Positions 4,683-61,220 of a stretch of 64,000 nt of DNA are shown one piece after another. The notes below the pieces were generated by a model. The model did no database searches and was not told the DNA's origin. It saw nothing but the letters and a program-made list of their open reading frames with translations. Made by a program: the position numbers and the translations under genes. Within the stretch, counting starts at the first letter, position 1. Every line of letters begins with the position of its first letter. This stretch comes from an uncultured Bacteroidales bacterium. GTDB taxonomy: Bacteria; Bacteroidota; Bacteroidia; Bacteroidales; JAAAOM01. The stretch covers positions 15,221 through 79,220 of the forward strand of contig CAZZBU010000001.1 in assembly GCA_964652315.1 (NCBI GenBank), in the 5' to 3' direction.

Positions 4683-7600
4683 ATGTACAGACGCATTTTA
4701 CGCCGTTTACATGTCTATCCGCAAGATGTCAGAAAGCTGATCTTGTTAATAATAAATGCGTTTGGCATAGGGATGTTTGTTGCAGCCTTTGATATTGCTG
4801 CCATAGCCCAGTTTTTGGGAGTCTATTCGATAAAAGAATTACCCCTCGCTATTGTGCTTTCCGGATTCTTAGCCCTTTTGATTTATCCTTTTATTGCCGG
4901 ACAGCAGCTGCAAATCAGGGCCCGTTTTTACGGAGTATATCTGTTAAGCATTCTTTTGATTCTTTCCCTAGTGTTCTTTTATGGGCCGGCCTTAGTACCA
5001 AATCGGAAATGGCATTATGCTATGTTTTTAATGTCGGTTCCGATAAATATCCTTGCATACCAACAATTGAATTATATTCACAGATTTTTCAAATCCAATG
5101 ATGAGGAAAAGCGTTATTATTTTTTAACCGATCTGGGATATTATGGGGGCATGAGTTTTGTGGGTTTCCTTATTCTTTTTTATCTCTCATTTCTCTCCAA
5201 CAATGCTTTGGAGGTCATACTTATAAGTTCTTTGGGCGTGGTAATTGCATTTATAGCTCAGGGGGTGATTAACAATAAACTTCAGTCCGTAACCACATCA
5301 ATAAGACGAGCGCATGCCAGCTCCTTCCTTAATATTTACCCTACCGATTTTTTTTCGGACAAATTTTTGCGAAAAGTTTTTTTTACAGTAATTCTCTCAG
5401 GTGTTTCGTTTTGGTTAATTCACTACTCTTTTTTGTCCCTTGTACAGACAACCTACAACAATGCCCTGGGATACTCTAAATTTCTTGGGTTGTTTTTTGG
5501 TGTTTTAGCCTTTGGAATGTTGTTTTTCCGTCATGTGTTGGTTAAACGTATCCTTCATACCTATGATTCGCCTTATAATGTTTTTATTGTTCCGATCATC
5601 AATTTTGTATTGGTGGGTATTGCCATAGTTATGTACCTGGTGGTTGGCGAAAATAATATCATCAGCCGGTATTCCCTTTTCTTTATCATATTTGCATTGA
5701 TAAAGTTTGTGTCTGTTATATTGCAGGCTTCCATAGAGAAACCAGCCTTGTCTTTACAATACAGGATTTATGAAATACCCAAGTGTGACATTATTGAAAA
5801 ATTCTTCACCGGACCGGTAAGGTTTCTGGCAGCTCTCATCGGAGGTGGTATTTTGTTTCTGATTATTAAAGCTTTTGCTGATGATTATTTGCCTGTTGTA
5901 TTATTATTGGGAGCTGTGCTATTAGCGCATATCATAGTAAATTTCTTTTTATTGAAACGGTTCAACAAAAATGTAAAGATTTTCCTCGGTAGTCTGGCAA
6001 TGACACGAAAGTATTTTTTGAATAAAATTATTGCTTTGCGTGAAAGGCTGTACAAACTGAATTTGCTTGATTCCCCGGAAAAGATGCTTTACACCCTTAA
6101 ACTCGCCGAGGATAATTACCCTGCCGATTTTAGAAATAACCTCTATTATCTTCTTGGAAACAGCCACGAAAAAGTTACAGATTTTGCCATCGAACGCATT
6201 GAAGCCTTGAGTGTAATAGAATATCAGGGACAGATCGAAAGGCAGTCAAAACGCATCCGGGATGTTTATCTGAAAGCCCGGTTCAGAAAACTGGCCGAGA
6301 TATTTTCAAGACATATTCAAACCAGCCGGGAATATACAAACATTTTTAAGCTGGTTGATTCAAGGGTAACGGAAAACCGGATTCTGGCAGCTAATATGAT
6401 TGGCTCACTCAAGGATCCCAAGCTTATTTCCCAATTGGTATTATTGTTAAAAGATTTCAGGCCAGAAGTGAAAAAGGCGGCGTTTATTGCTGCCACTAAT
6501 TACCGGACAAGTGATTTGTCGCCTATAATGCTGGAGCATTTAGCATCAACCGAGAATTATGCTTACGCATACGATGTGCTCTTACGCATCGGTGAAGACG
6601 GGTTGGAATACCTTGAAAAAGCTTTTTTAAACCCTAAGACAGATGACCGTTTGCTGAAAAGAATTGTAAAACTAATTGGTGAATTCAAAAGCTTGCGTGC
6701 ACAAAAATTACTGCTGAGTAAAATTGATTATACCAGTCCTGAGGTTTCTTTCCAGGCCATTGGTTCACTTATTGAAGGTGGCTTTGAGGCAAAGGATGCT
6801 GATAAATACCGTGTACTTAATGCTATTGTTAAGATAATAGGAGCTGTCAGCAAGAATATGAACCTGCTCTACATATTAAAAGGACAGAAAACTGACCCAA
6901 GCATAATTGATGCAATAAGAAAAGATAACCAGGTAGCGAGGCAAAACATATTTGACTTATTATCAATAGTTTATAACAGAAATATTATACTGAGGCTCAA
7001 GGAGTATATTGAAAATGAAGATTTAACTGCCAATCATTTTGGATTGGAACTGCTGGATAATATCCTTGATGAGAACATAAAATCTGTTTTGGTGCCAACC
7101 CTTCAATTCAACTCCCCCTACCATAAGGTTAAAACATTACAATACTTTTATGTGCTTGAAGAAATTCCTTATGATGAAGCATTTGATCAAATGCTCGTTG
7201 CCGAATCTTCACAAACCAGTAATTATACAAAAGCCTGTATTTTAAATTACTACCTTTCTTTGGATGAGGTAAAGATAAATGATGTGATTGTATCGTGCCT
7301 TTTTCATAAAGACAGGCTTATCCAGGAAACTGCAGCTTGTTTAATCTATAAAAATGATGTTGATTTATATTACGAAGTAGTCGAAAGGCTTGATGTAAAT
7401 GCAAAATATTATCTGGACAATTCAGTTGAATTTTATCAAAGCAGAAAATCGCACCTGTTGTTATCAAAAATTAATTTCCTTTATAAAATACCTTACTTTA
7501 ATTCCTTACGTTCCACTATTCTGGTAGAGTTAGCGAAATATCTAGAGATAAATTCACTGAAAGAATCAGGTAATTTGACCTTTGAAGGTGAACCATGGAG

Positions 7601-9366: not shown

Positions 9367-12300
9367 TACAGAAGTCATAAAACAACATATTGCTACGCAA
9401 TCTGACAGGAAGAATCCATTTCCGGGATTGAGACCTTTCAGCATTGATGATACCTACTTGTTTTTTGGCAGGGAAGGACAAAGTGCTGAAGTTATCCGAA
9501 ATCTCACTAAATATCGTTTTGCTGCGGTTACCGGTGCCTCAGGCGAAGGAAAATCGTCCTTAATTTATTGTGGGGTTATTTCAGGGCTTCAGGGAGGATT
9601 TATTCCCGAGGCGGGTGCAAACTGGAATATTGTTCATTTCCGCCCCGGAAGCAGTCCAATAGAAAATCTTGCAGATGCCCTTTTTAATAACCTGCCAGAG
9701 AAGAGAAAAAAAGAAAAAACACTTAAACCACTTTTTCTTTCACTCCTTAAACGGAGTTCCGATGGAATTGTAGAGGTTATAAAACAGATGCGGCTGCCTG
9801 ATCAGCAAAATATGCTGTTAATTGTTGACCAGTTCGAAGAGCTTTTCCGGTTTCGTGAAGCAACACGGAATTTTGATGTTATCAACGAAACAGAAAGCTT
9901 CATCAAGCTGTTGACAGATTCCGTAAGTCAGAAAAATGTTCCTGTGTATATTATTCTAACCATGCGATCGGATTTTATGGGTGAATGTTCCCAATTTCCT
10001 GACCTGGCTCAACGGATAAATATGAGTAACTACCTTATTCCCAGGATGTCAAGAGAGGATTACAAGCGGGTAGTTACAGGCCCGATATCTGTTGCAGGCG
10101 TTAAAATTGAAGAGCAGTTGGTTTATGAACTCTTGAATAATGTAACAGATGAAGTAGATTCACTCTCAGTGATTCAGCATGCCCTCATGCGGACCTATGA
10201 GCATTGGAAGAAGTACAGTGATCCGCTTTCGCCAATATCTTATGTTGATTATGAGGCTATTGGTAAAATTGACAATGCAATCTCGTATCATGCAGATGAA
10301 GCCTTTAATGAGTTAGATGAAGAAGGGCAAAGGATTTGCCGAAGCATGTTTACTACCCTTACTGAAAGGGGAGAAGATAACAGGGGGATAAGGCATCCGG
10401 CTAAAGTTTCGACAATTGCAAACGTAGCTCAGGCCCCGGTTAAGGATACCATCGAAGTAATAAACAAATTCCGTACAGAAGGACGTGCATTTCTTACACC
10501 CAGCATTACCACACCAATTACTGCTGATACGGTTATTGATATTTCGCATGAAAGCATTATGCGGAACTGGGACAGGCTCAAAAACTGGATTGATGAAGAA
10601 ATAGAGTCTGTAAGGATGTATCTGCGAATATCAGAGGCCGCTGAATTATACCAGTTGGGTAAAGCCGGATTGTGGCGACCGCCTGATTTGCTATTAGCAC
10701 AAAACTGGAGAAAAAGATTTAAACCTAATCTTGCCTGGGCTAAACGGTATAATCCTGCATTTGAGCGGACAATGGTGTTTCTGGATGCCAGTGAAAAAAG
10801 ATACCAGGCCGAAGAAAGAAATAAAATACGCATGCAAAAGCGGACCCTCGTCCGGACACGTAGGTTTGCCTCTGTACTCGGGGTCACTGCTGTAATTTTT
10901 CTCGGATTGGTATTATATGCAAATTTCCAGCGAGTTGAGGCCGAAAAACAACGGCTTGCAGCGGAAGAAGCCAGTCAGGAAGCTGAAGAACAACGGAAAA
11001 TTGCCATTGCACGAACACTGGAAGCTGAAGAATTGCGAAGCATTGCTCAACGAAATGCTCAACTGGAGCAGGAAAAGAGAGCAATTGCTGAGAAGTTGTC
11101 TGAATTGTCGGATGATGAAAAGGACAAAGCCCTTCAGACGGCAACGGAAGCCGAGCTTGAATCGGAGATACTACGGCAAACATCTATTCTTGAACGCCAG
11201 CAACGCGAAATTGTGGAGGAAACGCTCCGGGAAACAGAAAAAGAGAAAACAGAAGCCCAACTGGCAAAAGAACGGGAGTATCGACAGCGTATCCTTTCAA
11301 TTTCAAATGAGATGGCAATTCGTTCGCTTCAAATAAACCAAAACAAAAATTTAAAAGGGTTATTGGCATATCAGGCTTATATTTATAATGAGCGATACAA
11401 CGGACAAGAACATAATTCAGATATATATCATGCGTTGCTGTCATCCTTGAAATCATTTAACGATCCCGTATATCAAAGTGTTGAAGCCCATTTAGGAGCT
11501 GTTAGAGGGGTTAGCTTCCATCCAAACGCCAATTTATTTTATACCCTGGGTGGTGAAGGTAAAATCTATGAATGGGATATAAACAGTCCACAGACTCCCC
11601 ACGCCACCATTATGGATGATAACGTTTTGAACCGTTCCATGGCTCTAAGCAATGATGGCAAATGGTTGGCAGCGGGTACCGGCGAAAACCATATATTGCT
11701 GTTTAATCTGGATCAACCGCAAAGCCCGCCTGCAAAACTCCGGGGGCATACCGGGTGGATTTGGTCCCTTGCTTTTACTCCGGATAACAGTGCTTTGATA
11801 AGTTCCAGTGGTGATAAATCCATTATTGCATGGAATCTTTCAACTTTTGAGGGGCGTCTGCTTACGGAAAATAATTCCGGTGTGCGCTCCATTAGTTCCA
11901 GCCCTGATGGTAGATATGTAATCGGTGGTACAGATGATGGAAGGTTGATCCTTTGGAACCTTCAGGACCAGAATTCAATTGAGTTACACCAGCAGCAGGG
12001 AAATACAATTTATGCTGTTAATTACAGTGATAACGGACGCTTAGTTGCTTTTGGTGATAAAAACGGTCAGGTAAAATTGCTAAACCCTCAGTCAGGAAAT
12101 CTCATTCGAACCCTGTCGGGTCATAAACAGCGGATTTTAAACCTTGATTTCAGTCCAAATGGAAGGTATCTTGCTTCATCCAGCCTTGACGGATCAGTAC
12201 GTTTATGGTCACTTGAGAATCTGAACATGCCGCCCATTGTGCTGTCCGGACACGATTCATGGGTGCTGGCCGTAGCTTTCAGTGCCGACAGTCAGCATCT

Positions 12301-12460
12301 GGTTTCTACCAGTCAGCGTGGAAACTTTATGGTCTGGCCTACAAATTCGGATGTTATGAGCGATAAAATGTGTAATTTTATTAACAGAAACATGAATCAA
12401 AGTGAATGGAACTCTTACGTCGGTTCAGATATAGAATATGAAAAAACCTGTAACCCCTAA
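9347..12460 (+). CDS. STAND-type P-loop NTPase (nSTAND-like), single TM helix, long coiled coil, seven WD40 repeats
   Basis: 1037-aa ORF. N-terminal signature NPFPGLRPFSIDDTYLFFGRE, Walker A GASGEGKSS, Walker B LLIVDQFEELF. Hydrophobic FASVLGVTAVIFLGLVLYANF is preceded by KRTLVRTRR. An E/K/Q/R-rich helix and 7 WD40-like blades follow. Start ATG 9347 or 9359; both overlap the upstream stop at 9364-9366. Confidence 0.75.
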   Translation: MQKKMADTEVIKQHIATQSDRKNPFPGLRPFSIDDTYLFFGREGQSAEVIRNLTKYRFAAVTGASGEGKSSLIYCGVISGLQGGFIPEAGANWNIVHFRPGSSPIENLADALFNNLPEKRKKEKTLKPLFLSLLKRSSDGIVEVIKQMRLPDQQNMLLIVDQFEELFRFREATRNFDVINETESFIKLLTDSVSQKNVPVYIILTMRSDFMGECSQFPDLAQRINMSNYLIPRMSREDYKRVVTGPISVAGVKIEEQLVYELLNNVTDEVDSLSVIQHALMRTYEHWKKYSDPLSPISYVDYEAIGKIDNAISYHADEAFNELDEEGQRICRSMFTTLTERGEDNRGIRHPAKVSTIANVAQAPVKDTIEVINKFRTEGRAFLTPSITTPITADTVIDISHESIMRNWDRLKNWIDEEIESVRMYLRISEAAELYQLGKAGLWRPPDLLLAQNWRKRFKPNLAWAKRYNPAFERTMVFLDASEKRYQAEERNKIRMQKRTLVRTRRFASVLGVTAVIFLGLVLYANFQRVEAEKQRLAAEEASQEAEEQRKIAIARTLEAEELRSIAQRNAQLEQEKRAIAEKLSELSDDEKDKALQTATEAELESEILRQTSILERQQREIVEETLRETEKEKTEAQLAKEREYRQRILSISNEMAIRSLQINQNKNLKGLLAYQAYIYNERYNGQEHNSDIYHALLSSLKSFNDPVYQSVEAHLGAVRGVSFHPNANLFYTLGGEGKIYEWDINSPQTPHATIMDDNVLNRSMALSNDGKWLAAGTGENHILLFNLDQPQSPPAKLRGHTGWIWSLAFTPDNSALISSSGDKSIIAWNLSTFEGRLLTENNSGVRSISSSPDGRYVIGGTDDGRLILWNLQDQNSIELHQQQGNTIYAVNYSDNGRLVAFGDKNGQVKLLNPQSGNLIRTLSGHKQRILNLDFSPNGRYLASSSLDGSVRLWSLENLNMPPIVLSGHDSWVLAVAFSADSQHLVSTSQRGNFMVWPTNSDVMSDKMCNFINRNMNQSEWNSYVGSDIEYEKTCNP
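9533..9559 (+). other. Walker A / P-loop (GASGEGKSS)
   Basis: Direct translation of nt 9533-9559 in the CDS frame. Confidence 0.85.
9812..9847 (+). other. Walker B region (MLLIVDQFEELF)
   Basis: Hydrophobic strand followed by D-Q-F-E-E-L-F. The DQFEE motif is typical of the nSTAND-type NTPases often fused to WD40 or TPR arrays. Confidence 0.7.
10865..10927 (+). other. Predicted single transmembrane helix (signal-anchor)
   Basis: 21 consecutive hydrophobic residues, FASVLGVTAVIFLGLVLYANF. The basic cluster KRTLVRTRR on the N-terminal side fits the positive-inside rule. Confidence 0.65.
10928..11290 (+). other. Predicted coiled-coil spacer of about 120-130 aa
   Basis: Uninterrupted A/E/K/Q/R/L-rich sequence with no Pro or Gly: QRVEAEKQRLAAEEASQEAEEQRKIAIARTLEAEELRSIAQRNAQLEQEKRAIAEKL...TEAQLAKEREYRQR. 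Confidence 0.6.
11483..12340 (+). other. Seven WD40-like blades (beta-propeller)
   Basis: Seven units of ~40 aa. Examples: RGHTGWIWSLAFTPDNSALISSSGDKSIIAWNL, SGHKQRILNLDFSPNGRYLASSSLDGSVRLWSL, SGHDSWVLAVAFSADSQHLVSTSQRGNFMVWP. Confidence 0.85.
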
Positions 12461-12471
12461 TCAAAAAATGA

Positions 12472-13500
12472 ATGGCAGTTTTTCAAAGGATGGTTATTTT
12501 TAACTTGTTTCTGATTGTAATCCCTCCGCACGCCAGTGCGCAGGAAAACAAATGTGTTTATAAGCTTGACACTGCCCGGATACTTTTTGAAAACGGCCTT
12601 ATCGAGGATGTGCCATCTACATTGTGGCCATGTATCGAAGAAGGATTCTCACGGGAAGAACGCATAAGTGCGTACAAATTACTGGTGATAACATATTTAT
12701 TTGATGGTAACCAGACCGAGGCAGAACGTACAATGCAGCAGTTTATTTTTGATTATCCAAATTACGATATCAGGCCCGATGATCCCGTGGAATTTGTGTA
12801 TCTCTATGAATCCTATGAATCGGTACCCAAGTATTCTTTTGGAATACGTACAGGTACAAATCTGGCACAGCCTTATCGAATAAATCCTCAAAGTATTGGT
12901 ATTTCGGGAGACAATAGTGTTAAATACCATCTCGGTTTGCAAGCTGCCGTAACATCTGCTATTTATCTGAACAGAAATTTTGCCCTGAATCTTGAAACTG
13001 TGATACTTCAGACAAATCATGAGTTTATCAATAACTTAACCGACATTTCTAAAGTTCGGTTTGAGGAGGTTCAAAACAGAGTTGAAGTACCTCTCTACCT
13101 GAGTTATCATTTTAATACGAAAGAATTTTTCCCTTATGTTTTTTTGGGAGGGTCTTTTAATAAGTTGCTTGTAGCAAATGGATTGCCCGAACGCGTTGTG
13201 CTTTCTGAGGACGACAACGAAACTTTTACCGGTCCTGAACTTGACATTTCAGCCCAACGGAATAATTTTGATTTTACCGGACTTGCAGGATTTGGACTTC
13301 GTTATCCGTTAACCAAAGGAAGCTTATTCCTGGATTTCCGTACTTCTTTTGGATTGAAAAATCATCTGGCCGGGTCCAGATTTCAGAATACCATATTATG
13401 GTCCAGATATTACCACCTAGATAATGATTTTGCCATGATTCGTTATTCCCTGAGTTTTGGTTATGTTTATTCATTTTATAAGCCCGTAAAAATCAGGTAG
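12472..13500 (+). CDS. Secreted protein with an N-terminal TPR-like helical segment and a C-terminal outer-membrane beta-barrel-like domain
   Basis: Signal peptide MAVFQRMVIFNLFLIVIPPHASA|Q. The C-terminal ~230 aa show alternating hydrophobic/polar strands rich in G/Y/F/N (FGIRTGTNLAQPY...GFGLRYPL...YSLSFGYVYSFY). Starts 11 nt after the upstream stop. Confidence 0.55.
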   Translation: MAVFQRMVIFNLFLIVIPPHASAQENKCVYKLDTARILFENGLIEDVPSTLWPCIEEGFSREERISAYKLLVITYLFDGNQTEAERTMQQFIFDYPNYDIRPDDPVEFVYLYESYESVPKYSFGIRTGTNLAQPYRINPQSIGISGDNSVKYHLGLQAAVTSAIYLNRNFALNLETVILQTNHEFINNLTDISKVRFEEVQNRVEVPLYLSYHFNTKEFFPYVFLGGSFNKLLVANGLPERVVLSEDDNETFTGPELDISAQRNNFDFTGLAGFGLRYPLTKGSLFLDFRTSFGLKNHLAGSRFQNTILWSRYYHLDNDFAMIRYSLSFGYVYSFYKPVKIR

Positions 13501-13502
13501 CT

Positions 13503-14675
13503 ATGTTGCAAAAAATTAAAATAGTCCTTGCTTTGATCTCCATCCTAACGGGCTGCAGTGATGATTTGTTCGAAGAGCTGCCTGAGAATACTTCAGTGAG
13601 GTTTTTTGGTACCTCAGGCAGAGACGTAGCAATAGATGTCACGTCACGAAACAATGGTATTTTTATTCTGGGAAGCATCCTCGACAATGGAAACACATAT
13701 CCGGGAATATTTAGCCTTGACCATGTGGGGCAGCAAAAAAATCAGTCCTTTATCATTGATAATCAGATGAATAACGTTGTTGTTGATTTTGAATTAACCG
13801 ATGATAATAATATTATTGTACTGGCTAATTCCCTTCCGGCAGAAAGCAATCAAACCTCTGCCGTACATGTAATAAAAACAGATATAAATGGAAACATAAT
13901 TTGGCAAAAAGATTTTATAGTAAGAGGCAACATATCATCCCGGCAAATGTTAATTCATCAGGATAACATCTATATTGTCGGAAGTATTTTTGATAACAAT
14001 GGAAGCGAAGAGGATGGTTGGTTGCTTATGCTGGATAAAGAAGGGACCATTTTACAGGAACACAGGTATGGTGGAAATCTAAATGATGGGATTGTTTCTA
14101 TAGTTGCAGTAGAAAATGATTTATTATTATTGGGCAATACCCAGTCCTTTGATATTGGTAACAGAAGCGGTGATATTTGGTTAATCCGGACAGATTTAAA
14201 TGGAAGCATTAAAGGGTTTAATACATTTGGTACCTCCGGAAGTGACATAGCACTGAGCCTTATAAAACAAAGCAACAATGCTGTCTTTGTCTTGGGCCGT
14301 TCTACTAAATCTTTAAATGGTGGTGATCTGACCCTTGTCAGTTGTGTTAATCCTGTTTCTCTCTCAGTTGATTGGCAAAAGGAATATTCTGCAGATTATT
14401 CACTTTCTCCACAATCCATGATTTGGTGGAATAATGCTTTGGTGGTAGTACAAAATGAAGAAATCAGTTCTGATTTTACCCAGATCGGGTTTTTGTATTA
14501 TAACATGGAAGGAGAATTATTAAAGCATAACCATCTGGACGGTGAGATTGGTATTTCTGCACGAAAAATTCACGTGTTCAGTGAAGATGAATTTGTTCTT
14601 ATCGGTACAAATGTTTTCAGAGGTGCCAGTGATATAGCATTTTTAAAGATCAGTGAAAATTCCGAATTTTTTTAG
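13503..14675 (+). CDS. Lipoprotein with about seven ~50-aa beta-propeller-like repeats
   Basis: Lipobox LALISILTG|C. Repeating pattern (F/Y)G.s..D.a..v....n.ivv.G.t......D.wl.k.d..G.i, for example IVGSIFDNNGSEEDGWLLMLDKEGTIL and LLGNTQSFDIGNRSGDIWLIRTDLNGSI. ATG lies 2 nt after the upstream stop. Confidence 0.6.
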   Translation: MLQKIKIVLALISILTGCSDDLFEELPENTSVRFFGTSGRDVAIDVTSRNNGIFILGSILDNGNTYPGIFSLDHVGQQKNQSFIIDNQMNNVVVDFELTDDNNIIVLANSLPAESNQTSAVHVIKTDINGNIIWQKDFIVRGNISSRQMLIHQDNIYIVGSIFDNNGSEEDGWLLMLDKEGTILQEHRYGGNLNDGIVSIVAVENDLLLLGNTQSFDIGNRSGDIWLIRTDLNGSIKGFNTFGTSGSDIALSLIKQSNNAVFVLGRSTKSLNGGDLTLVSCVNPVSLSVDWQKEYSADYSLSPQSMIWWNNALVVVQNEEISSDFTQIGFLYYNMEGELLKHNHLDGEIGISARKIHVFSEDEFVLIGTNVFRGASDIAFLKISENSEFF

Positions 14676-14703
14676 TTTGGAAAACTTGTTTTTGTTTTGA
14701 TAC

Positions 14704-17700
14704 ATGATTTTAAAGAAACATATACTATCTCTTTTTTTTCTGTGGGTTGGGATATTTTTAAATCAATCCCAAAGCTTTGGAGCGCTTGATTTGCTTGGTG
14801 GCACTGTTGTAATCAGTGGAGATACCACCATCTGTCCTGGTGATTCAGCTAATATAAGGCTCCAGTTTACAGGACAGCCTCCTTTTGATGCATATATTAC
14901 CAGAACAAGTGCCGCCTATGATACTTTGCAGGATATTTATTCAACCGATACGATTATCAAAGTTGAACTTGAGGGTATTTATCGCGTTTCTGATATGTTC
15001 GATGCTACCGGTTCGGGGGTGTCAAACGGTTCTGCAACCGTAAATTCGTATAATCGTCCATCTGCCGTTTTAGGGGGGAGCCGGTCCATTTGCGAAGAAG
15101 ACAGCACACAACTTACAGTCAATCTTTCCGGGGCAGCACCATGGAATATTGTGCTTGATGTTAATGGTGAAAACCTTGTATATTCTGATATAGAAGATGA
15201 AATTTTCAATATGTACATAAATCAGCAAGGAGTCTATGAGGTGGTAGAGGTAAAGGATTCATATTGTTATGGCGAAGCCAGCGGGCAGTTTGAATTAAGC
15301 CATTATCCCAAGTCCAATGCAACTCTCTTTGGAGAGTCTACGATTTGTGAAGAATCCTCAATGCCCCTGGTGTTCCTGTTCGAAGGCGATCAGCCCTGGG
15401 AGGTAGCCTATGAAGTAAATGGGATATTGACAGATACAGTCCATGATATTACGCAAACACCCTTTTACTACAATGTGTCGCAGGAAGGCACTTATACCAT
15501 TAACCACATAAAAGATGCCCGTGGTTGTATTGGTAATTTTTCGGGGACAGCTCAGGTAACACACCATGAAAAAACGGATGTACAGATTACCAACCTCAAT
15601 TCTACCTATGCAATTACTCACCCGCCTGTTACGCTCACTGCCACACCCAGTGGAGGTGAATTTAAAGGCAATGGAGTAGTATCATCTACCGGTACGTTCT
15701 ATCCTGACATCGCTGGATCCCTGGGGACTTCACATGAGATAATTTATTATTACATTGACCCGGTAACAGGTTGCCTTAGTACGGATACCGCCCTTGTTAA
15801 TGTTATCGAAGCTGCAGCAAGCCTTATCCTCGAGGATGAAAAAGAGGTGTATTGCTTTAATGGTGATCCTATTTTACTTACCGGGGCTAATGTTGAGAAT
15901 ACCATAGGGAAATTCAGTATATCCGGCGGAAAGGGATTGGTCGATCATAATGATAACACAGCTACTGTTTATCCCAGTCAGCTTTCAGGTGGTACTTATA
16001 CCATTACTTATTCGGATAATGATGGGAGTTTGTTTTCAGTAGAAAAACAAATTAATGTTGAATACCTTGAAGAAATATACTTTATTGGCCTGACTGATAA
16101 AAACTTTTGTGCTAATGATCCTCCCGTTGAGCTAACCGGAAATCAGCAGGGGGGAGTATTTATGGGCAGTGGTGTTGAAGTAGACAGTACAGGGACTTTT
16201 TATTTTAATCCTTCTAATGCAAATGTCGGAACAAACACCATTGTTTATTCGTTTACCTCTGTTAACGGATGTACCAGAGATACCACCAGTGACGTAATGG
16301 TATTTGCTTTGCCTGATATAGATTTTACAGTTTCGGATAGTTGTGTTGATGAAAGAAATCCATATCCGGTGAGATTTTTAAACCTAACAGCAAGCGAACA
16401 GCCGGTAACTGAATGGTTTTGGACGTTCAATGACGCCGGATCAGGAGTGCAAAATACGAGTACGCTTGAAAACCCAACACATGTTTATTCCACGGCGGGC
16501 TCACGCTCCGTTCAGTTAACAGCGACTACCAATGTTGGTTGTGAAAATACAGGTGCAAAAACCATCATCTTTGGTGATAAGCCGGCCAGTTCATTCACGG
16601 TCTCCTCGGAATGTTATAATAGTGATTCGGCCATTCAGTTTGTAAATACCAGTACAAGTAAAACAGAGATTGCATCTTATTTGTGGGAATTCAGACATGG
16701 CTCCAGCGTCATTACCAGCGAAGAAGAGAACACATCGCAAGTTTTTCCTGAACTTAAAAATTATGATATCCGTTTTATTACCGAAACAGCCGCTGGTTGC
16801 AAGGATACATCGATTTATTCCCTGGAGTTAAAACCAACCATTGATTTAAGTGAAGGGCCGTATTTTCAGGATTTCGAACTTGGAAGAGGAAGTTGGAACA
16901 CTGAAAATGAGCTTAATGCGCAAATCAACAGCTGGACTTTTGGCACTCCTGACGAATATTTTACTACAGCCGGTAGTTCTAATAAAGCCTGGTATACGGA
17001 TATTGGAGTGCGCGAAATGGAACAGTCATGGGTGAAAAGCCCGTGTTTCAGCTTTAGTAATTCCAAAAAACCATATATCAGTTTTGATGTCTGGCGAATT
17101 TTTGAACAAACACGTGATGGGGCAGCCCTTCAATATACTACAAATAATGGGGCTACCTGGTCGCTGGTTGGTGGGCTTAATGATGGAATTAACTGGTTTA
17201 ACTCATATCAAATCATTGGTCTTCCAGGAAATCAATCAATTGGCTGGTCAAATATAATTGATAATCAATGGGTTGAAACAAGGCATAGACTGGATAGCCT
17301 CATTGGTAAATCCAATGTGCAGTTCAGAATAGTGTATGGTTCTGATGGAACGGGTTTAAATAATCAGGGAATTTCCTTTGATAATATTTGGATATCAGAA
17401 CGTCAGCATCAGGTATTAATAGAACATTTTACAAACATTAACGACTCCGCAATATTATATTCCAATTCGCTGGTAAACAACCTTACCAGAGACAATAAAA
17501 AGGATGTTGTTAATATTCAATACCACACCGGTTTTCCAAATATTGATAGTTTTAATCTGGTAAATCCGGTTGATCCCAGTGCTAGGTTACTTTATTACGG
17601 TATTTCAGAGACACCCTACTCAGTAATTGACGGACGTAACACTTTTGATTATACAGAGGGGAATGAACCCGGTGATAACATTTTGATTCAGGGGTCACTG

Positions 17701-18357
17701 CAGGATCCAACCTTCTCTCTTAGTCTTGAACCGGAAATTGTCGACAATACCCTACAGGTGAGTTATTCTATCCGGGCTTTGAGCCAGATGCCGTCTGCAA
17801 ATTATACACTGTATATTGCAGTACTCGAAAACAACCTGTCGTATAGGGTTTCCAGTGATTCAACTGAGTTGTATCAAAGTGTTTTTAGAAAATTTCTCCC
17901 TGATGCAGCAGGTATAAATTTTAAGAATGCATGGCTGTTAGATCAAACCAAACAGGGAAATGTTGTTTGGGATATGAATACCATACACGATAGAAACAAT
18001 ATTGAGCTTGTTGCCTTTTTACAGAATCAAAATACCCGGGAAGTGGTCCAGGTCACTTCCAAAAAAGATTTCTTGTCCTCAACGAACAATCCGGTGTCTG
18101 AGGTTCGAAATCCCTTTGAATTATATCCTAACCCCGCCGGTAACCGGGTTGTAATTGAGTTTTCTGAAATTCAGGAAAAACCTGTTACCATCTATTTTTA
18201 TAGCACTACAGGAACACTTGCTCTCAGCAAGGTCCTAAGTCCGGGAATATCTTCCGCTGAGCTTGATCTGAATAAACTTCCAAAAGGGGTTTATTTTGTC
18301 AGATTCAATCATCCTGCATCAAAGTCAGCTGTGGTTAAGCTAATTAAGTCAGAATAA
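14704..18357 (+). CDS. Large T9SS-secreted surface protein: Ig-like/PKD repeats, MAM/jelly-roll-like domain, Omp28-like domain, type A C-terminal sorting domain
   Basis: 1217 aa with a signal peptide. Three Cys-containing N-terminal modules. Two PKD-like units (WFWTFNDAGSG...NPTHVYSTAGSRSVQLTATTNVGC; YLWEFRHGSS...). C-terminus LYPNPAGNRVVIEF...GVYFVRF...KLIKSE is typical of the Por/T9SS type A CTD. Confidence 0.8.
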   Translation: MILKKHILSLFFLWVGIFLNQSQSFGALDLLGGTVVISGDTTICPGDSANIRLQFTGQPPFDAYITRTSAAYDTLQDIYSTDTIIKVELEGIYRVSDMFDATGSGVSNGSATVNSYNRPSAVLGGSRSICEEDSTQLTVNLSGAAPWNIVLDVNGENLVYSDIEDEIFNMYINQQGVYEVVEVKDSYCYGEASGQFELSHYPKSNATLFGESTICEESSMPLVFLFEGDQPWEVAYEVNGILTDTVHDITQTPFYYNVSQEGTYTINHIKDARGCIGNFSGTAQVTHHEKTDVQITNLNSTYAITHPPVTLTATPSGGEFKGNGVVSSTGTFYPDIAGSLGTSHEIIYYYIDPVTGCLSTDTALVNVIEAAASLILEDEKEVYCFNGDPILLTGANVENTIGKFSISGGKGLVDHNDNTATVYPSQLSGGTYTITYSDNDGSLFSVEKQINVEYLEEIYFIGLTDKNFCANDPPVELTGNQQGGVFMGSGVEVDSTGTFYFNPSNANVGTNTIVYSFTSVNGCTRDTTSDVMVFALPDIDFTVSDSCVDERNPYPVRFLNLTASEQPVTEWFWTFNDAGSGVQNTSTLENPTHVYSTAGSRSVQLTATTNVGCENTGAKTIIFGDKPASSFTVSSECYNSDSAIQFVNTSTSKTEIASYLWEFRHGSSVITSEEENTSQVFPELKNYDIRFITETAAGCKDTSIYSLELKPTIDLSEGPYFQDFELGRGSWNTENELNAQINSWTFGTPDEYFTTAGSSNKAWYTDIGVREMEQSWVKSPCFSFSNSKKPYISFDVWRIFEQTRDGAALQYTTNNGATWSLVGGLNDGINWFNSYQIIGLPGNQSIGWSNIIDNQWVETRHRLDSLIGKSNVQFRIVYGSDGTGLNNQGISFDNIWISERQHQVLIEHFTNINDSAILYSNSLVNNLTRDNKKDVVNIQYHTGFPNIDSFNLVNPVDPSARLLYYGISETPYSVIDGRNTFDYTEGNEPGDNILIQGSLQDPTFSLSLEPEIVDNTLQVSYSIRALSQMPSANYTLYIAVLENNLSYRVSSDSTELYQSVFRKFLPDAAGINFKNAWLLDQTKQGNVVWDMNTIHDRNNIELVAFLQNQNTREVVQVTSKKDFLSSTNNPVSEVRNPFELYPNPAGNRVVIEFSEIQEKPVTIYFYSTTGTLALSKVLSPGISSAELDLNKLPKGVYFVRFNHPASKSAVVKLIKSE
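14797..15588 (+). other. Three tandem ~88-aa Cys-containing Ig-like modules (protein-level repeat)
   Basis: GDTTICPGDSANIRLQFTGQPPFDAYI..., GSRSICEEDSTQLTVNLSGAAPWNIVLDVNGE...DSYCYGEASG and GESTICEESSMPLVFLFEGDQPWEVAYEVNG...DARGCIGNFSG share the same spacing of C, P-W/F and a late C. Confidence 0.6.
18109..18354 (+). other. T9SS type A C-terminal sorting domain
   Basis: NPFELYPNPAGNRVVIEFSE...TIYFYSTTG...LPKGVYFVRFNH...VKLIKSE. Confidence 0.8.
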
Positions 18358-21805: not shown

Positions 21806-24001
21806 TCAGGCTTCTTTTTCTTCCTTTTGTTTTTTACGGGTTTTCACATCGCCCTTTTCATCTTTTCCTTCTGGTGTTTCTCGTTTCATGGAAGTCCCGT
21901 CTGGCCTTTTTTTCGCTGGTTTATCCTTTAGGCCTTCTTCCTTGACCTTAGCTGATGTTTTTGGTGAATTTTTTCGATCGGCTTTTGCAGGTTTAACCAA
22001 ATCTTCACTCTTTTTACGTTCACCAAAAATGTTCACCAAATCTTCCGTGAATATTACCTCTTTTTCAAGCAGGATCTCAGCCAGTTGAGTTAACCCTTTT
22101 TTGTTTTTGGCAAGTAGATCTTTGGCCCGCTTAAACTGTTGGTCGATGATGCTTTTTACTTCAGCATCAATTAATTCGGCAGTTTTTTCGCTATAGGGCT
22201 TTTGAAATGAATATTCATTCTGCCCGGTAGAGTCGTAAAAGCTGATATTGCCAAGTTTCTCGCTCAGGCCGTAATAACTAATCATGGCGTAAGCCTGTTT
22301 CGTAATTTTTTCAAGGTCGTTGAGTGCTCCTGTGGATGATTTTCCAAAAACAAGTTCTTCTGATGCTCGTCCTCCAAGAGCCGAACACATCTCATCTAGC
22401 AATTGCTCCTTCGTTGTAATTTGTCTTTCCTCAGGCAAATACCAGGCTGCTCCCAGTGCTTTTCCACGAGGGATGATGGTTACTTTGACCAAAGGATTGG
22501 CATGTTCGAGCAGCCAACTAACTGTAGCATGCCCCGCTTCATGATAGGCAATGGTCTTTTTCTCCTGGAATGTAATGATTTTATTCTTCTTTTCCAGTCC
22601 ACCGATAATCCTGTCAATTGCATCCAGAAAGTCTTGTCGTTCAACAGCTTTTTTATCTTTTCGAGCAGCTATCAATGCAGCTTCGTTACATACATTGGCT
22701 ATATCGGCGCCTGAAAATCCCGGCGTTTGTTTAGCCATAAAATCAAAATCCACATCTTTAGAAGCTTTGATGGGCTTCATGTGCACCTTAAAAATTTCTT
22801 TTCGTTCGTTTAAATCGGGCAGTTCTACATGAATCTGTCTGTCAAACCGTCCGGCCCGCAACAACGCACGGTCAAGAATATCGGCCCTGTTGGTAGCAGC
22901 CAGGATGATCACACCGCTGTTGTTGCCAAAACCATCCATTTCGGTAAGCAACTGGTTCAATGTGTTTTCTCTTTCATCATTTGCGCCCATATTTGGGTTT
23001 TTGCCACGTGCACGGCCAATTGCATCAATCTCATCGATAAATACAATACAGGGTGCCTTTTCTTTAGCCTGTTTAAATAAGTCGCGTACACGTGAAGCGC
23101 CCACACCCACAAACATTTCTACAAAGTCGGAACCGGACATGCTGAAAAAGGGCACATGTGCTTCTCCTGCCACTGCTTTTGCCAGCAATGTTTTTCCTGT
23201 TCCCGGAGGGCCTACAAGCAATGCCCCTTTAGGGATTTTACCACCCAAATCTGTATATTTTTTTGGATTCTTAAGGAATTCAACTATTTCTTTGATTTCT
23301 ATTTTAGCCTCGTCCAGCCCGGCTACGTCAGTAAAATCAACCTTTATATTGGCTTCTTTATCAAATAGTTTTGCTTTGGATTTTCCCACATTGAAAATAT
23401 TGGCACCACCTGCACCACCACCTGCGCCACCGCTCATTCTGCGGAATATGAAAATCCAGATGGCAGCAAGAATCAGAAATGGGAAAATCCAGCTCAGAAT
23501 ATTGCCCAATACATCCGGTCTGGTTTCGCTATCGGCATAGATAATATCATCTTCCGGCATTCCTTCCTGAGCTTCAGCAAGACGCTCCTCAAAAGTTTCC
23601 ACAGCAGCAATGCTAAAGACATATTGAGGCCCTGTTTTTTGTGCACCACCGATTCCGGTTCCTTTCTCCCTAAGATCATCATATTTTTCCTGATCAAGCC
23701 GATCTGGTTTGATGTAAACCTCAACAAGTTCTTTATTGACAACCACAACCTTTCTGACATCTCCTGGTTTCAGCATCTGGTTTTTGAACCTGTTTTCATT
23801 GATTTCAATGGGTTTATTGCCCATGCTGAAAAACTGAATAGAAAAAATTCCCAGAATGATCAAGCCATAAAGCCAGTAAACATTGAATTTTGGTTTATTA
23901 TTTTGTAGCCCGCCGTTTCCATTCTTCTTATCCGGACCAGCGTTGTTTCCCGGTGTTTTTTTATACTTTTTATTTTGCTCCATTCTTAATATTTCCTCCA
24001 A
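21806..24001 (-). CDS. ftsH: ATP-dependent zinc metalloprotease FtsH
   Basis: Walker A GPPGTGKTL, second region of homology, zinc site HEAGHA, N-terminal TM helices. Carries a ~70-aa Lys-rich C-terminal tail. Start may be the internal MEQNKK. Confidence 0.93.
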   Translation of the reverse strand: MEEILRMEQNKKYKKTPGNNAGPDKKNGNGGLQNNKPKFNVYWLYGLIILGIFSIQFFSMGNKPIEINENRFKNQMLKPGDVRKVVVVNKELVEVYIKPDRLDQEKYDDLREKGTGIGGAQKTGPQYVFSIAAVETFEERLAEAQEGMPEDDIIYADSETRPDVLGNILSWIFPFLILAAIWIFIFRRMSGGAGGGAGGANIFNVGKSKAKLFDKEANIKVDFTDVAGLDEAKIEIKEIVEFLKNPKKYTDLGGKIPKGALLVGPPGTGKTLLAKAVAGEAHVPFFSMSGSDFVEMFVGVGASRVRDLFKQAKEKAPCIVFIDEIDAIGRARGKNPNMGANDERENTLNQLLTEMDGFGNNSGVIILAATNRADILDRALLRAGRFDRQIHVELPDLNERKEIFKVHMKPIKASKDVDFDFMAKQTPGFSGADIANVCNEAALIAARKDKKAVERQDFLDAIDRIIGGLEKKNKIITFQEKKTIAYHEAGHATVSWLLEHANPLVKVTIIPRGKALGAAWYLPEERQITTKEQLLDEMCSALGGRASEELVFGKSSTGALNDLEKITKQAYAMISYYGLSEKLGNISFYDSTGQNEYSFQKPYSEKTAELIDAEVKSIIDQQFKRAKDLLAKNKKGLTQLAEILLEKEVIFTEDLVNIFGERKKSEDLVKPAKADRKNSPKTSAKVKEEGLKDKPAKKRPDGTSMKRETPEGKDEKGDVKTRKKQKEEKEA

Positions 24002-54467: not shown

Positions 54468-55097
54468 TTAACTTCCTGATGTTTTTGAAGTATCTGCCGG
54501 GACAGGCTGATTATAGAGCACTTCTGTGATATAGGTTACTATTTTCCAGCGATCATCAGGCAATACCAGTGGGCCATGGGCTCCCATCACCCCAAAACCT
54601 ACTGTGATGTTGTGAAAGGTTTCCCCTTCAGGCTTTGCTTTTACTTGTTCGGTAATCAGACTGGCCGGAGGATAAGGATATCTGCCACTGGTATAAAGAT
54701 AGCCTTTACCATCGCCATATTCACCATGGCACTGAAGGCAAAATCTTTCATAATGAATTTTACCTGCCTCAACGATGGCTTGTGTTGGCTCATAGGGATT
54801 TGATAATTCTTCGCCTGCTTTTTTCATGTCGGCATCCGTTTTTTCGTAAGGGTAGGGTATGTGCCCTCTTGGAACGGTCCCTTCAACAGGTGGCCGATTA
54901 GTATACCCTTCTTCGAAAACCGGATTTTCCGAGTAGGTTTCATAAGCCTCTGATTCATCCATATCCGGGAAATAAACATAGCCGGGATGGTTGTTGTCAC
55001 GATCGCAACTGACCATTCCGATTAAAAAACCGCCCAGGACAATGCCTTTAAGCCAGTTTATTTTATTATTTTTCAAATTATATATGCGTTCTTCCAT
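54468..55097 (-). CDS. actE: Alternative Complex III monoheme cytochrome c subunit
   Basis: N-terminal anchor with Cys (MVSCDRDN) and a single CLQCHG heme motif. Last gene of the act cluster. Confidence 0.65.
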   Translation of the reverse strand: MEERIYNLKNNKINWLKGIVLGGFLIGMVSCDRDNNHPGYVYFPDMDESEAYETYSENPVFEEGYTNRPPVEGTVPRGHIPYPYEKTDADMKKAGEELSNPYEPTQAIVEAGKIHYERFCLQCHGEYGDGKGYLYTSGRYPYPPASLITEQVKAKPEGETFHNITVGFGVMGAHGPLVLPDDRWKIVTYITEVLYNQPVPADTSKTSGS

Positions 55098-55100
55098 GGT

Positions 55101-56270
55101 CTAAATGTTATCGTATTCAAGACTCTCTTTGTAAAAGGGGTGATTTACCGGAATCAGGCTGGCTTTGGTGAGTGAAGTAAACACAATAAAAAGGAACAGT
55201 CCGGTATATCCAATGGTTAGTCCCACCTCAAGCAAGCCAATGCCTGCTTCTTCATGCCCAACAGCACCAGGCATAATGGCCAGGTAAATGTCAATCCAGT
55301 GTCCTACAAATACAATCAGTGCAGCGATTACCATGATGCCTTTGTGTCTTTTGGAACCCCTGGTCATTAACACAATAAAGGGGATAAAAAAGTTTATACC
55401 CAGGTTAAGATAGAATAGCAGGCTGAAATGTTCAACCCGTTCAACAAAATAGATGGTTTCTTCGGGTATGTTGGCATACCAGATTAGCATAAACTGAGAG
55501 AACCAGAGATATGCCCAAAAAATACTGAATCCAAATAAATATTTACCAAGGTCATGCAGGTGTTCTTCATTAAGATGAGGCAGGTACCCTATTTTATTCA
55601 GGTATATTACAATTAGTATGATAACGGCTATTCCGGCAACAAAGAAACTGGAAAAAATATACCAGCCATATAAGGTGCTAAACCAGTGCGGGTCGATTGA
55701 CATGAGCCAGTCCCATGCAGAGGTAGAACTGGTAATGGCAAAAAACACCACGAAAAATGCAGCCCATGAACGGCTTTTTTTCAATATGTCAAAGGAAGGA
55801 TCCTTATCACTGGCTAGCGAAATTTGCCTCAATTTATAGGCCAGCAAGGTCCAGCCTGCCAGATATACAACGGTCCGGATAGTAAAGAACGGGATGTTCA
55901 GATAAGGTGTTTTATCCTGCAAAACAGCATCCAGCTCTTCGGTATGGGTCCAATGGTAGAGATCATGCATTCCCAGCAGGATCAAAAGCATTAACATACT
56001 GCCAAAAGGTAAATACGTACCCATGGCCTCGGGGATCCGCTGTATGCTTGTGTGCCAGCCCGACTCACCCAGGATATGTACCACCACAAAAAAAACTCCG
56101 GCAAGGGCTATGGCCAGAAAATAAAAATTGTTCAGTAAAACATTGGCCCATAATCGATGACCGTGAATGTCATGTGATACTATCCCATAAACTAATGAGA
56201 GAATACCAATTGCGATAAAAACGAATAATATGGTTTTTGTCTTTTTTGTGAAATTAAATGTCTGTTCCAT
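55101..56270 (-). CDS. actF: Alternative Complex III membrane subunit (ActF-like, NrfD-related)
   Basis: 389 aa with about 10 TM helices. Lies between the actD-like and cytochrome c genes. Confidence 0.65.
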   Translation of the reverse strand: MEQTFNFTKKTKTILFVFIAIGILSLVYGIVSHDIHGHRLWANVLLNNFYFLAIALAGVFFVVVHILGESGWHTSIQRIPEAMGTYLPFGSMLMLLILLGMHDLYHWTHTEELDAVLQDKTPYLNIPFFTIRTVVYLAGWTLLAYKLRQISLASDKDPSFDILKKSRSWAAFFVVFFAITSSTSAWDWLMSIDPHWFSTLYGWYIFSSFFVAGIAVIILIVIYLNKIGYLPHLNEEHLHDLGKYLFGFSIFWAYLWFSQFMLIWYANIPEETIYFVERVEHFSLLFYLNLGINFFIPFIVLMTRGSKRHKGIMVIAALIVFVGHWIDIYLAIMPGAVGHEEAGIGLLEVGLTIGYTGLFLFIVFTSLTKASLIPVNHPFYKESLEYDNI

Positions 56271-56286
56271 GTATTGTATTGCGTTT

Positions 56287-56805
56287 TTAATCGTGTAATG
56301 TTATGTTCAGGGCCCCTGTTTCCCCTAAAGCACTTTCATAGGTTTTTACTTCATCCTCTTTTGCTTCCAGCAGGATCAAAAACCGGTCGTCGGTAACGCG
56401 TTCGTCGTATATTTTATTTTTAGCCCCAATACCCAGTTGCGAACGCATCAGAAAGGCAAACACCATGGAGAAGGCGGCAAACAGTACCGTAAGCTCAAAT
56501 GCCACGGGGATAAATGTTGGAATAGAAAGGTAAGGCTTACCACCAAAGGTAATGGGGTAATCTACTGTAAATATCCATATTTGAAAAGCCATGGCCAAAA
56601 TCAAACCGAGAACACCTCCCCAGAATGCCACTTTAGGTAGATGAGAGCGACGGTATTTAAGGGTTTTTTCCAGTCCATGTACCGGAAAGGGGGTAAACAC
56701 ATCTTTAATGTTTACTGATTTTTCCTGAAGCGATTTAATGGCTATCTTCAAATCAGTTTCATCCTCGAAATATCCGCTGATATGTTTTTTATTTTCTGCA
56801 ACCAT
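56287..56805 (-). CDS. actD: Alternative Complex III subunit ActD (DUF3341 family)
   Basis: 172 aa with a soluble N-domain and two TM helices. Start abuts the actC stop. Confidence 0.7.
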   Translation of the reverse strand: MVAENKKHISGYFEDETDLKIAIKSLQEKSVNIKDVFTPFPVHGLEKTLKYRRSHLPKVAFWGGVLGLILAMAFQIWIFTVDYPITFGGKPYLSIPTFIPVAFELTVLFAAFSMVFAFLMRSQLGIGAKNKIYDERVTDDRFLILLEAKEDEVKTYESALGETGALNITLHD

Positions 56806-56806
56806 G

Positions 56807-58177: not shown

Positions 58178-58198
58178 TTAGTATTATTTTTCAGTAGA

Positions 58199-61171: not shown

Positions 61172-61220
61172 CCGTGTATATTTTAATCTGTCAGCGTTTG
61201 CCAGTTGAAGGTTACAGTCT

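Follow-up and report, generated by a model that had tools for sequence, protein, structure and literature searches.

What is a STAND NTPase that carries a WD40 propeller beyond a transmembrane helix, and that is paired with a TIR-family protein, doing among the housekeeping genes of an uncultured Bacteroidales bacterium? The question is raised by a cassette at positions 4683 to 18357 of the stretch analysed here (the window: 64,000 nucleotides, or 64 kb, of contig CAZZBU010000001.1, with coordinates counted from its first letter), in which six plus-strand genes that we call A to F follow one another. Our preferred reading, to which we give a probability of about 45%, is that the cassette encodes a trans-envelope, NLR-like signalling module built around a membrane-spanning STAND switch, the product of gene C, with the product of gene B as a non-catalytic TIR adaptor. 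An earlier description made from the letters of the DNA (hereafter the sequence-only reading) had proposed a module of A, B and C only, of the kind found in immune systems. The six genes are:

Gene A: 4683-7916, plus strand, 1077 residues; NTT/TLC-like transporter, HEAT repeats and cyclic-nucleotide-binding (cNMP-binding) fold.
Gene B: 7924-9366 (stop included), plus strand; TIR, DUF4062-like and flavodoxin-like domains.
Gene C: 9347-12460, plus strand, 1037 residues from ATG 9347; nSTAND1 NTPase, transmembrane helix, stalk and WD40 propeller.
Gene D: 12472-13500, plus strand, 342 residues; signal peptide, N-terminal domain of about 100 residues and outer-membrane beta-barrel (PF13568).
Gene E: 13503-14675, plus strand, 390 residues; lipoprotein with an LTGC lipobox and no known domain.
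Gene F: 14704-18357, plus strand, 1217 residues; signal peptide, Ig-like/PKD repeats, Omp28-like region and a type-A sorting domain of the type IX secretion system (T9SS).

Protein C and its linkage to B

C is the hub of the module, and its parts are laid out as follows.

nSTAND1 NTPase: 9416-10654, plus strand, residues 24-436; Walker A GASGEGKSS, Walker B VDQFEE.
Transmembrane helix: 10865-10921, plus strand, residues 507-525; single, with an Arg/Lys-rich N-terminal flank.
Charged helical stalk: 10928-11416, plus strand, residues 528-690; predicted periplasmic.
WD40 beta-propeller: 11444-12376, plus strand, residues about 700-1010; predicted periplasmic.

The profile matches make C a STAND NTPase that carries a WD40 sensor. 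The NTPase residues match Pfam nSTAND1 (PF20703) with an E-value of 8.9e-91 and 305.8 bits (cut-off 27.1), spanning model positions 1-372 of 379, and the propeller matches WD40 (PF00400) with an E-value of 5.8e-47. The STAND signature motifs noted by the sequence-only reading are all present (LFFGRE, GASGEGKSS and VDQFEELF), and GASGEGKSS and LLIVDQFEE are invariant in eight C homologues from four phyla; its observation that C has no N-terminal effector domain also stands, with only about 23 residues ahead of the NTPase. The NTPase domain is the best-conserved part of the cassette, with about 78% identity to L001, the closest full-length relative of C, and 37-57% identity across phyla (L-numbers denote loci of homologues recovered from GTDB species genomes or metagenomes). 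Elsewhere in the window, a weak nSTAND3 match of the FtsH gene (21806-24001, minus strand; 24.5 bits against a cut-off of 27.2) was set aside as generic AAA+ similarity.

Hydrophobic helices number one in C, none in B and at least ten in A. The single helix of C recurs about 445 residues past Walker A in 41 distinct homologues, and in every phylum sampled the gene after B encodes one hydrophobic helix just past the NTPase. Across the 41 homologues, the 15 residues flanking the helix hold on average 6.6 Lys plus Arg on the N-terminal side versus 2.7 on the C-terminal side, and the N-terminal side is the richer one in 40 of them. By the positive-inside rule, and given that a P-loop NTPase depends on nucleotide from the cytosol, we infer that the NTPase is cytoplasmic and that the stalk and WD40 propeller are periplasmic; the charge bias speaks against a cytosolic WD40 sensor. 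A periplasmic propeller also agrees with the export of D, E and F. The stalk, a segment of about 160 residues of which 59% are Glu, Lys, Arg, Gln or Ala, is probably helical and periplasm-spanning, and if wholly helical it would be long enough to bridge the periplasm. The stalk and propeller of C recall TolA with TolB and, taken with a lipoprotein and a barrel, the Tol-Pal layout.

The pairing of C with B is conserved well beyond this genome. When one genome for each GTDB species was scanned with a seven-sequence alignment of B, 42 loci from several phyla came up, among them Bacteroidota (Bacteroidales, Cytophagales, Flavobacteriales, Vicingaceae and Cyclobacteriaceae), Acidobacteriota, Cyanobacteria, Gemmatimonadota and metagenome-assembled genomes (MAGs) labelled Proteobacteria and Heliobacteriaceae. 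An nSTAND1 gene directly follows B in 41 of the 42, the exception (L044) stopping about 50 nt past B. In the reverse test, which started from C alone, 65 metagenome loci reached far enough upstream, and 46 of them have B directly before C. Of 79 distinct loci, 68 have a B/C junction of -25 to +15 nt; an ATGA overlap is seen in 21, and a Shine-Dalgarno-like GGAGG within B often comes before it. Conserved linkage and a tight B/C junction, both anticipated by the sequence-only reading, are thereby borne out, and chance adjacency of the genes was rejected on the strength of an order conserved across phyla. Two separate B-C pairs occur in the Acidobacteriota MAG JALZHT01 (L034 and L042); the B homologue of L034 lies in an open reading frame of 860 residues and may carry an N-terminal extension.

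The three-gene unit fared less well. Among the loci found through B, genes A, D, E and F occur only in Bacteroidota, in the order A-B-C-D-E-F, and the core outside that phylum is B-C; A appears only in the Bacteroidota form with D. That form always has D and usually E and F: D follows C in every Bacteroidota-type cassette of sufficient length, and D homologues found independently sit in the same cassette. As far as this distribution tells, the ancestral or general unit is the B-C pair, which the Bacteroidota form elaborates with links to the envelope. A HAMP-SpoIIE (PP2C) phosphatase gene lies between A and B in many Bacteroidota cassettes and is missing from the window; its product is a membrane protein of about 650-685 residues (L006:1397-3448; L013:7928-9901; L017:7732-9726; L028:1604-3565). 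Furthermore, there are B-less cassettes, A-C-D-E-F, such as L008:187-13378, in which A is followed by C directly or after about 2 kb. D comes after C in these, with E and F where the locus reaches far enough; further B-less cassettes are L063, L064, L067, L069, L072, L073, L075, L076, L078, L081 and L084.

In the window itself, the coordinates and junctions given for the first three genes are confirmed. Gene A starts at ATG 4683, with which homologue N-termini agree (the frame is open upstream to GTG 4635), and ends at TAA 7914-7916, 7 nt before the ATG of gene B at 7924; gene B ends at TGA 9364-9366. C has two possible starts, ATG 9359 inside ATGGCTGA or ATG 9347, which overlaps B by 20 nt, and L001 has an identical 20-nt overlap. 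Because the tight packing continues past C (11 nt from C to D, 2 nt from D to E, 28 nt from E to F), and because D-F are conserved with A-C in other Bacteroidota, we extend the operon to 18357, beyond which the neighbouring gene is convergent. The simplest reading of the layout is that 4683-18357 is a single predicted six-gene operon of 13.7 kb.

The TIR partner, the transporter fusion and the envelope proteins

An AlphaFold model of B, with a predicted local distance difference test (pLDDT) score of 80, contains three alpha/beta domains. Foldseek with the whole model gave mixed multi-domain false alignments, in which TIR matches reached only E ~1e-2, and the protein was therefore analysed domain by domain.

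Domain 1 (TIR): 7924-8463, plus strand, residues 1-180; Tyr89 (codon 8188-8190) stands in the catalytic-Glu column.
Domain 2 (DUF4062-like, TIR-like): 8470-8958, plus strand, residues 183-345; Gln265 (codon 8716-8718) stands in the inferred catalytic column.
Domain 3 and stop: 8959-9366, plus strand, residues 346-480; five-stranded flavodoxin-like alpha/beta domain with the conserved motif KxPGxGRxKP and no functionally characterised relative by sequence.

On the evidence of its family profile, domain 1 is a genuine TIR domain: the profile matches the solved TIR domains of SNC1 (E 6.7e-6) and TLR6 (E 2.2e-5), as well as those of RPS4, L6, RUN1, TLR1 and TLR2. The family consensus SPxYxxSxxCxxEL lines up with the plant TIR motif WCLxEL, which holds the catalytic Glu. 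Glu occupies this column in 67 of 126 family members. Its distribution is uneven, with Glu present in 51 of 60 two-gene loci (85%) versus 14 of 37 Bacteroidota-type loci; the window protein has Tyr.

Domain 2 resembles DUF4062, a TIR-like NADase domain with an essential Glu in the Swarozyc and Evangelion defence systems (10.64898/2026.05.01.722283; 10.64898/2026.06.25.731849). Its family profile matches the KpSwz DUF4062 structure (E 1e-3), and hhalign pairs it with a Vibrio DUF4062 protein at 93.8% probability (E 1.7e-7, 81 columns). Window B alone reaches 19.4 bits against Pfam DUF4062 (PF13271), under the cut-off of 24.7, and several B homologues hold precomputed PF13271 matches. The essential residue is E97 in KpSwz and E87 in Eva01, within an acidic 'SYT' region that includes an E-Y pair (10.64898/2026.05.01.722283; 10.64898/2026.06.25.731849). 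A Vibrio homologue (82% identical), used as a stand-in for KpSwz beyond chain residue 79, carries the motif S78-Y-T-E81-K-E83-F, onto which hhalign sets S260-L-I-D263-L-Q265 of B. Given the construct numbering and the 'E-Y' description of KpSwz E97 and Eva01 E87, we take the second Glu of SYTExE[YF] to be the likely catalytic residue, which would place the catalytic column at Gln265 of B. Gln fills this column in 116 of the 126 family members and in 90 of the 97 proteins taken from loci. In the column equivalent to Eva01 F11, window B has Thr194, and the aromatic residue is absent.

Domain 3, modelled alone (pLDDT 84), adopts a five-stranded flavodoxin-like fold, its best structural matches being TIR domains, DNPH1/Rcl, receiver domains and type II dehydroquinase (E ~1e-3); it has no sequence relative in the PDB. 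The claim that B consists of TIR-family modules is supported: TIR, DUF4062-like and flavodoxin-like domains are all there. No similarity among the three could be detected, however, and the idea that a single module had been triplicated was rejected, since domain-versus-domain profile probabilities lie below 2%.

With Tyr89 in the TIR domain and Gln265 in the DUF4062-like domain, window B is predicted to be a non-catalytic adaptor, and an NAD+ cleavage assay of it would probably be negative. Non-catalytic TIR adaptors are the norm in animal Toll-like receptor signalling. Outside Bacteroidota, where most relatives retain the TIR catalytic Glu, the output is probably NAD+ cleavage. The contrast between the mostly Glu-keeping forms outside Bacteroidota and the many Glu-less forms within it could show a TIR enzyme in the course of becoming an adaptor. 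The family is large, with 1,535 clusters at 50% identity in an exhaustive search (E <= 1e-30), which makes at least that many clusters for which we found no characterisation in the searchable literature. Nearly all of the best 150 matches are full-length, at 460-530 residues. Some family proteins have N-terminal extensions of 300-570 residues and others align to the profile along two separate stretches, as if domains had been added or duplicated; atypical examples are P0066 (1093 residues), P0074 (1043), P0131 (862) and P0022/P0023 (about 670).

A combines, as the sequence-only reading had it, a transporter, HEAT repeats and a cNMP-binding fold, and the family-profile matches bear this out. 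An NTT/TLC-like polytopic transporter occupies residues 1 to about 430, HEAT repeats about 470-880 and the cNMP-binding fold about 905-1050. Window A alone passes only Pfam HEAT_2 (residues 562-625); among nine family members scanned, HEAT_2 is found in all nine, cNMP_binding in seven and TLC in four. The family profile matches the chloroplast ADP/ATP carrier NTT1 (E 1.6e-18, residues 123-450) and the CNB domains of the cGMP-dependent kinase PKG (up to E 6e-31), and it also matches HEAT-type repeat proteins and the cNMP-binding domains of PKA and CRP. By these matches A probably belongs to a family of NTT/TLC-HEAT-cNBD fusions. Its cNMP fold (window 7395-7832) has a degenerate phosphate-binding cassette: no cassette-linked member has the Arg there, and most lack the Glu as well. 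Sorangium relatives that were not recovered through the cassette keep the canonical FGE...R[AT]ST.

The window copies of B and A thus look like scaffolds, not enzymes. For this copy the enzymatic and second-messenger roles suggested by the sequence-only reading are weak, given Tyr89, Gln265 and a cNMP fold without its Arg.

The remaining three genes connect the module to the envelope, all of them carrying signal sequences. D and E returned no match against solved structures by sequence, and the E family has no relative in Pfam, NCBIfam or the PDB. Among 38 E homologues, 27 fit the lipobox pattern and the remainder show a signal plus Cys by eye; a conserved F[IV]K[FLY][FY]G follows within about 10-20 residues of the lipobox Cys. 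F is a T9SS type-A cargo by the match of its sorting domain (residues 1140-1215) above both cut-offs, with 41 bits against 27 for PF18962 and 37.6 bits against 23 for TIGR04183. The size of F ranges from 1,217 to more than 5,400 residues among relatives, and its domains vary too. Through F, the cassette would connect a T9SS surface protein with a cytoplasmic switch. A second T9SS substrate, unrelated to the cassette, is encoded at window 62592-63413 on the minus strand (273 residues, PKD repeats and a CHU_C type-B domain).

Upstream of A, a 303-nt gap (window 4380-4682) separates the cassette from aroK and holds one promoter candidate.

Candidate operon promoter: 4658-4665, plus strand, TATTTTTG; fits the Bacteroidota -7 motif TAnnTTTG, 18 nt before the start of A.

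TAnnTTTG is not enriched in the window (66 found versus 76 expected), and the promoter is a lead only. Sigma-70 promoter-like sites number 52 against 43.8 expected from shuffles, under a model ill-suited to Bacteroidota, and terminator-like sites number 14 against 11.6 expected from shuffles; neither count does better than shuffled sequence. In close relatives a Vut_1 (PF02592) gene lies on the opposite strand just upstream of A (L001:5879-6649, between aroK and A; L133:251-1075; L134:56-880), where the window's gap is non-coding.

Proposed mechanism, genomic setting and rival readings

How might these parts work together? We propose that the propeller of C would contact the barrel (D), the lipoprotein (E) and the surface protein (F), and would there read a cell-surface or periplasmic cue. 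The cue would make the NTPase oligomerise, in a nucleotide-dependent manner, at the cytoplasmic side of the membrane, and the C oligomer would cluster its soluble partner B; the B/C stop-start overlap agrees with coupled translation of the two. In the window, B would pass the signal on to A through protein contacts, altering nucleotide transport. The domain identities, the conserved order and junctions of the genes, the helix with its charge bias and the residues in the aligned catalytic columns are observations; the side of the membrane on which the propeller lies, the contacts, the direction of signalling, the output and the purpose (immunity, neighbour sensing or envelope surveillance) are deductions from them.

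The 64 kb of the window are of housekeeping character (parE, parC, aroK, psd, cdsA, ftsH, lon, grpE and dnaJ), with a flavodiiron protein, a UvrD-like helicase and alternative-complex-III-like genes besides. The last lie near the far end of the window, where an Act-like cluster at 54468-62357 on the minus strand encodes a cytochrome c, an NrfD-like protein, a 4Fe-4S protein of 990 residues and a multihaem cytochrome. The window's flanking genes recur in a relative whose B is only 47% identical. No mobile-element or defence genes surround the cassette in the window, PADLOC matched none of its models to A, B or C, and an alignment of C found no relative in 2.9 million viral contigs; nor was enrichment of defence genes seen, as judged from the immediate cassette neighbours in a few loci. 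Nothing, in short, links this locus with defence islands or with mobile elements, and the immune tie drawn by the sequence-only reading finds no support here, while its statement that the arrangement belongs to no named defence system agrees with the PADLOC scan.

Several of these points weigh against the reading that we prefer. The housekeeping context, the synteny with L001 and the PADLOC and viral negatives lend no positive support to immunity. The topology of C rests on the positive-inside rule and the nucleotide need of its NTPase, the contacts among the six proteins are proposals, and the direction of signalling is not something that sequence lets one read. The loss of catalytic residues in B and of cNMP-site residues in A could mean decay of accessory parts instead of an adaptor role. 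The existence of B-less cassettes implies that B is dispensable for whatever C, D, E and F do. Finally, if the first Glu of SYTExE[YF] is the catalytic one, domain 2 of B would retain an acidic residue, Asp263; this column stays acidic in the Bacteroidota type and is not conserved in the two-gene type.

The most serious rival turns the flow of information around: in an inside-out envelope machine, the cytoplasmic NTPase would serve as switch or motor and, by way of the periplasm-spanning stalk and propeller, would act on D and E to govern how F is displayed, anchored or released. The role would be a stable housekeeping or behavioural one (adhesion, gliding or aggregation), with B, A and, in relatives, the PP2C phosphatase as cytoplasmic inputs. 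The location among core genes such as parE, parC, aroK, ftsH, lon and dnaJ, away from mobile and defence genes, is what such a machine would lead one to expect, as are the shared flanks in the relative 47% identical in B and an NTPase (78% against L001) far more conserved than the usual immune sensors. The persistence of C-D-E-F without B, the missing catalytic and ligand-binding residues of B and A in this lineage, the HAMP-SpoIIE phosphatase gene within many cassettes and the general resemblance of stalk-plus-propeller, lipoprotein and barrel to the Tol-Pal layout all point the same way. Yet the B-C core is present in phyla that lack D, E, F and the T9SS; the TIR Glu in 85% of B proteins outside Bacteroidota points to an NAD+-cleaving output and not to a structural role; and STAND NTPases are known as oligomerising switches, not motors. 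We consider this machine rather unlikely on balance.

A narrower version of our preferred reading, a special case of it, makes the cassette a surface sensor for immunity or kin recognition. Phage tail proteins or neighbouring cells would engage a platform of F, D and E that serves as decoy or receptor, C would report the engagement across the envelope, and shutdown would follow through A or, in relatives, through the TIR NADase. It draws on the same architectural evidence as the general reading and, in addition, on the wide variation of F in size (1,217 to more than 5,400 residues) and domains, on the two B-C pairs in one Acidobacteriota MAG and on the catalytic TIR kept in most two-gene loci. 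Against it stand the stable synteny, the lack of enrichment near defence genes (with the same limitation to immediate cassette neighbours in a few loci) and a propeller that shows no sign of faster diversification, WD40 identity being 51% versus 47% for B. This version we regard as quite improbable.

Least likely of all, and well into the improbable, is the cytosolic three-gene anti-phage model, an abortive-infection scheme in which the WD40 propeller would sense a phage protein, the NTPase would oligomerise, B would cleave NAD+ or make a nucleotide signal, and the cNMP-like domain of A would read this signal and open a membrane effector: it can appeal to tightly coupled genes, to a STAND, TIR-family and WD40 combination that is the grammar of conflict systems (where nSTAND1 was defined) and to the DUF4062 NADases of Swarozyc and Evangelion defence, but the propeller lies beyond the transmembrane helix on the predicted periplasmic side, B has Tyr at the TIR Glu and Gln in the DUF4062-like domain, the phosphate-binding cassette of A lacks Arg and Glu, A is absent from cassettes outside Bacteroidota, D, E and F are linked as tightly as A, and no PADLOC model matches.

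Returning to the trans-envelope STAND module, we see its interest chiefly in where it would listen. To our knowledge, known bacterial STAND and TIR systems sense invaders within the cytoplasm. An extracytoplasmic STAND sensor, if that is what C is, would represent another route of information, the surveillance of the periplasm or cell surface. One may go further and imagine, across at least six phyla, a propeller-NTPase receptor with a TIR partner in Toll-like-receptor layout, wired into the envelope in Bacteroidota, that detects phages or neighbours at the surface and triggers a cytoplasmic response; this broader proposal is doubtful.

Relation to known systems

Does the cassette correspond to anything already described? 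For Thoeris, no SIR2, Macro or SLOG domain was found in the cassette or its neighbours; for CBASS and Pycsar, no cyclase domain was found in nine scanned genes; PADLOC gave no match to either group, and for Avs it holds no family that A, B or C matches, the roughly 23 residues before the NTPase of C adding to that negative. The cassette does share the tripartite logic of Avs and bNACHT systems, that is, sensor repeats, a STAND switch and an effector. It differs from them in having no effector fused to C, a sensor predicted to be extracytoplasmic and, in the window, a partner B without catalytic residues, besides the missing PADLOC match.

The nSTAND1 domain was defined in the setting of conflict systems (Kaur, Burroughs, Iyer and Aravind, 2021, eLife; PMC8195603). 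Like the systems described there, C has a full-length nSTAND1 with C-terminal WD40 repeats and a TIR-family partner. In those systems, however, an effector or adaptor domain (EAD or Death-like) is fused N-terminally to the NTPase and matched in the partner (PMC8195603), whereas C has no N-terminal domain, B and C share no evident adaptor domain, and a transmembrane helix parts the NTPase of C from its sensor. The idea of a membrane-spanning STAND protein is not unprecedented, since periplasm-facing sensor domains on STAND-type proteins were predicted earlier in one study of diversity-generating retroelements.

With Swarozyc and Evangelion the likeness is confined to domain 2 of B, which aligns with their strand-A motif, with their GGxYG motif and with the Ser at the start of the catalytic helix. 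Each of those systems is a single gene whose product has a variable C-terminal auxiliary sensor region and an essential Glu. B instead has Gln at the aligned position, lacks the N-terminal aromatic residue, sets domain 2 between two flanking alpha/beta domains to make three in all, and is paired with an nSTAND1 gene. The eukaryotic proteins TEP1, NWD1, NWD2 and NPHP3 and bacterial TEP1-like proteins likewise combine DUF4062, STAND NTPase and WD40 modules, but in one soluble polypeptide with a NACHT domain. The cassette divides them over two genes with nSTAND1, places a transmembrane helix between NTPase and WD40, and adds a canonical TIR and a third domain.

For A, the closest counterparts are NTT-HEAT-cNBD fusions noted, and left uncharacterised, in the accessible part of Major, Embley and Williams 2017 (PMC5381601), whose three-part architecture A shares at the level of its family; A shows a relationship to members passing Pfam TLC, HEAT and cNMP_binding. 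In that part of the paper the family is not linked to STAND or TIR genes, whereas A is linked to both here; furthermore, cassette-linked A proteins have a degenerate phosphate-binding cassette, while the Sorangium members of the family keep FGE...R[AT]ST. The cassette thereby gives these long-uncharacterised proteins their first genomic context. In the searchable literature, with the supplements of the Aravind group left aside, we found no description of the B family, of its obligate pairing with an nSTAND1-transmembrane-WD40 protein or of the six-gene cassette.

By analogy, the predicted layout comes nearest to that of animal Toll-like receptors, in which an extracytoplasmic repeat sensor, one membrane pass and TIR assembly on the cytoplasmic face follow one another as they would here. 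The two differ in their parts: Toll-like receptors sense through leucine-rich repeats, their TIR domain is part of the receptor chain and they lack an NTPase switch, whereas the sensor of C is a WD40 propeller, with no homology between the two sensors. If the trans-envelope reading of this cassette is right, no bacterial parallel to the Toll-like receptor signalling of animals would be closer in layout.

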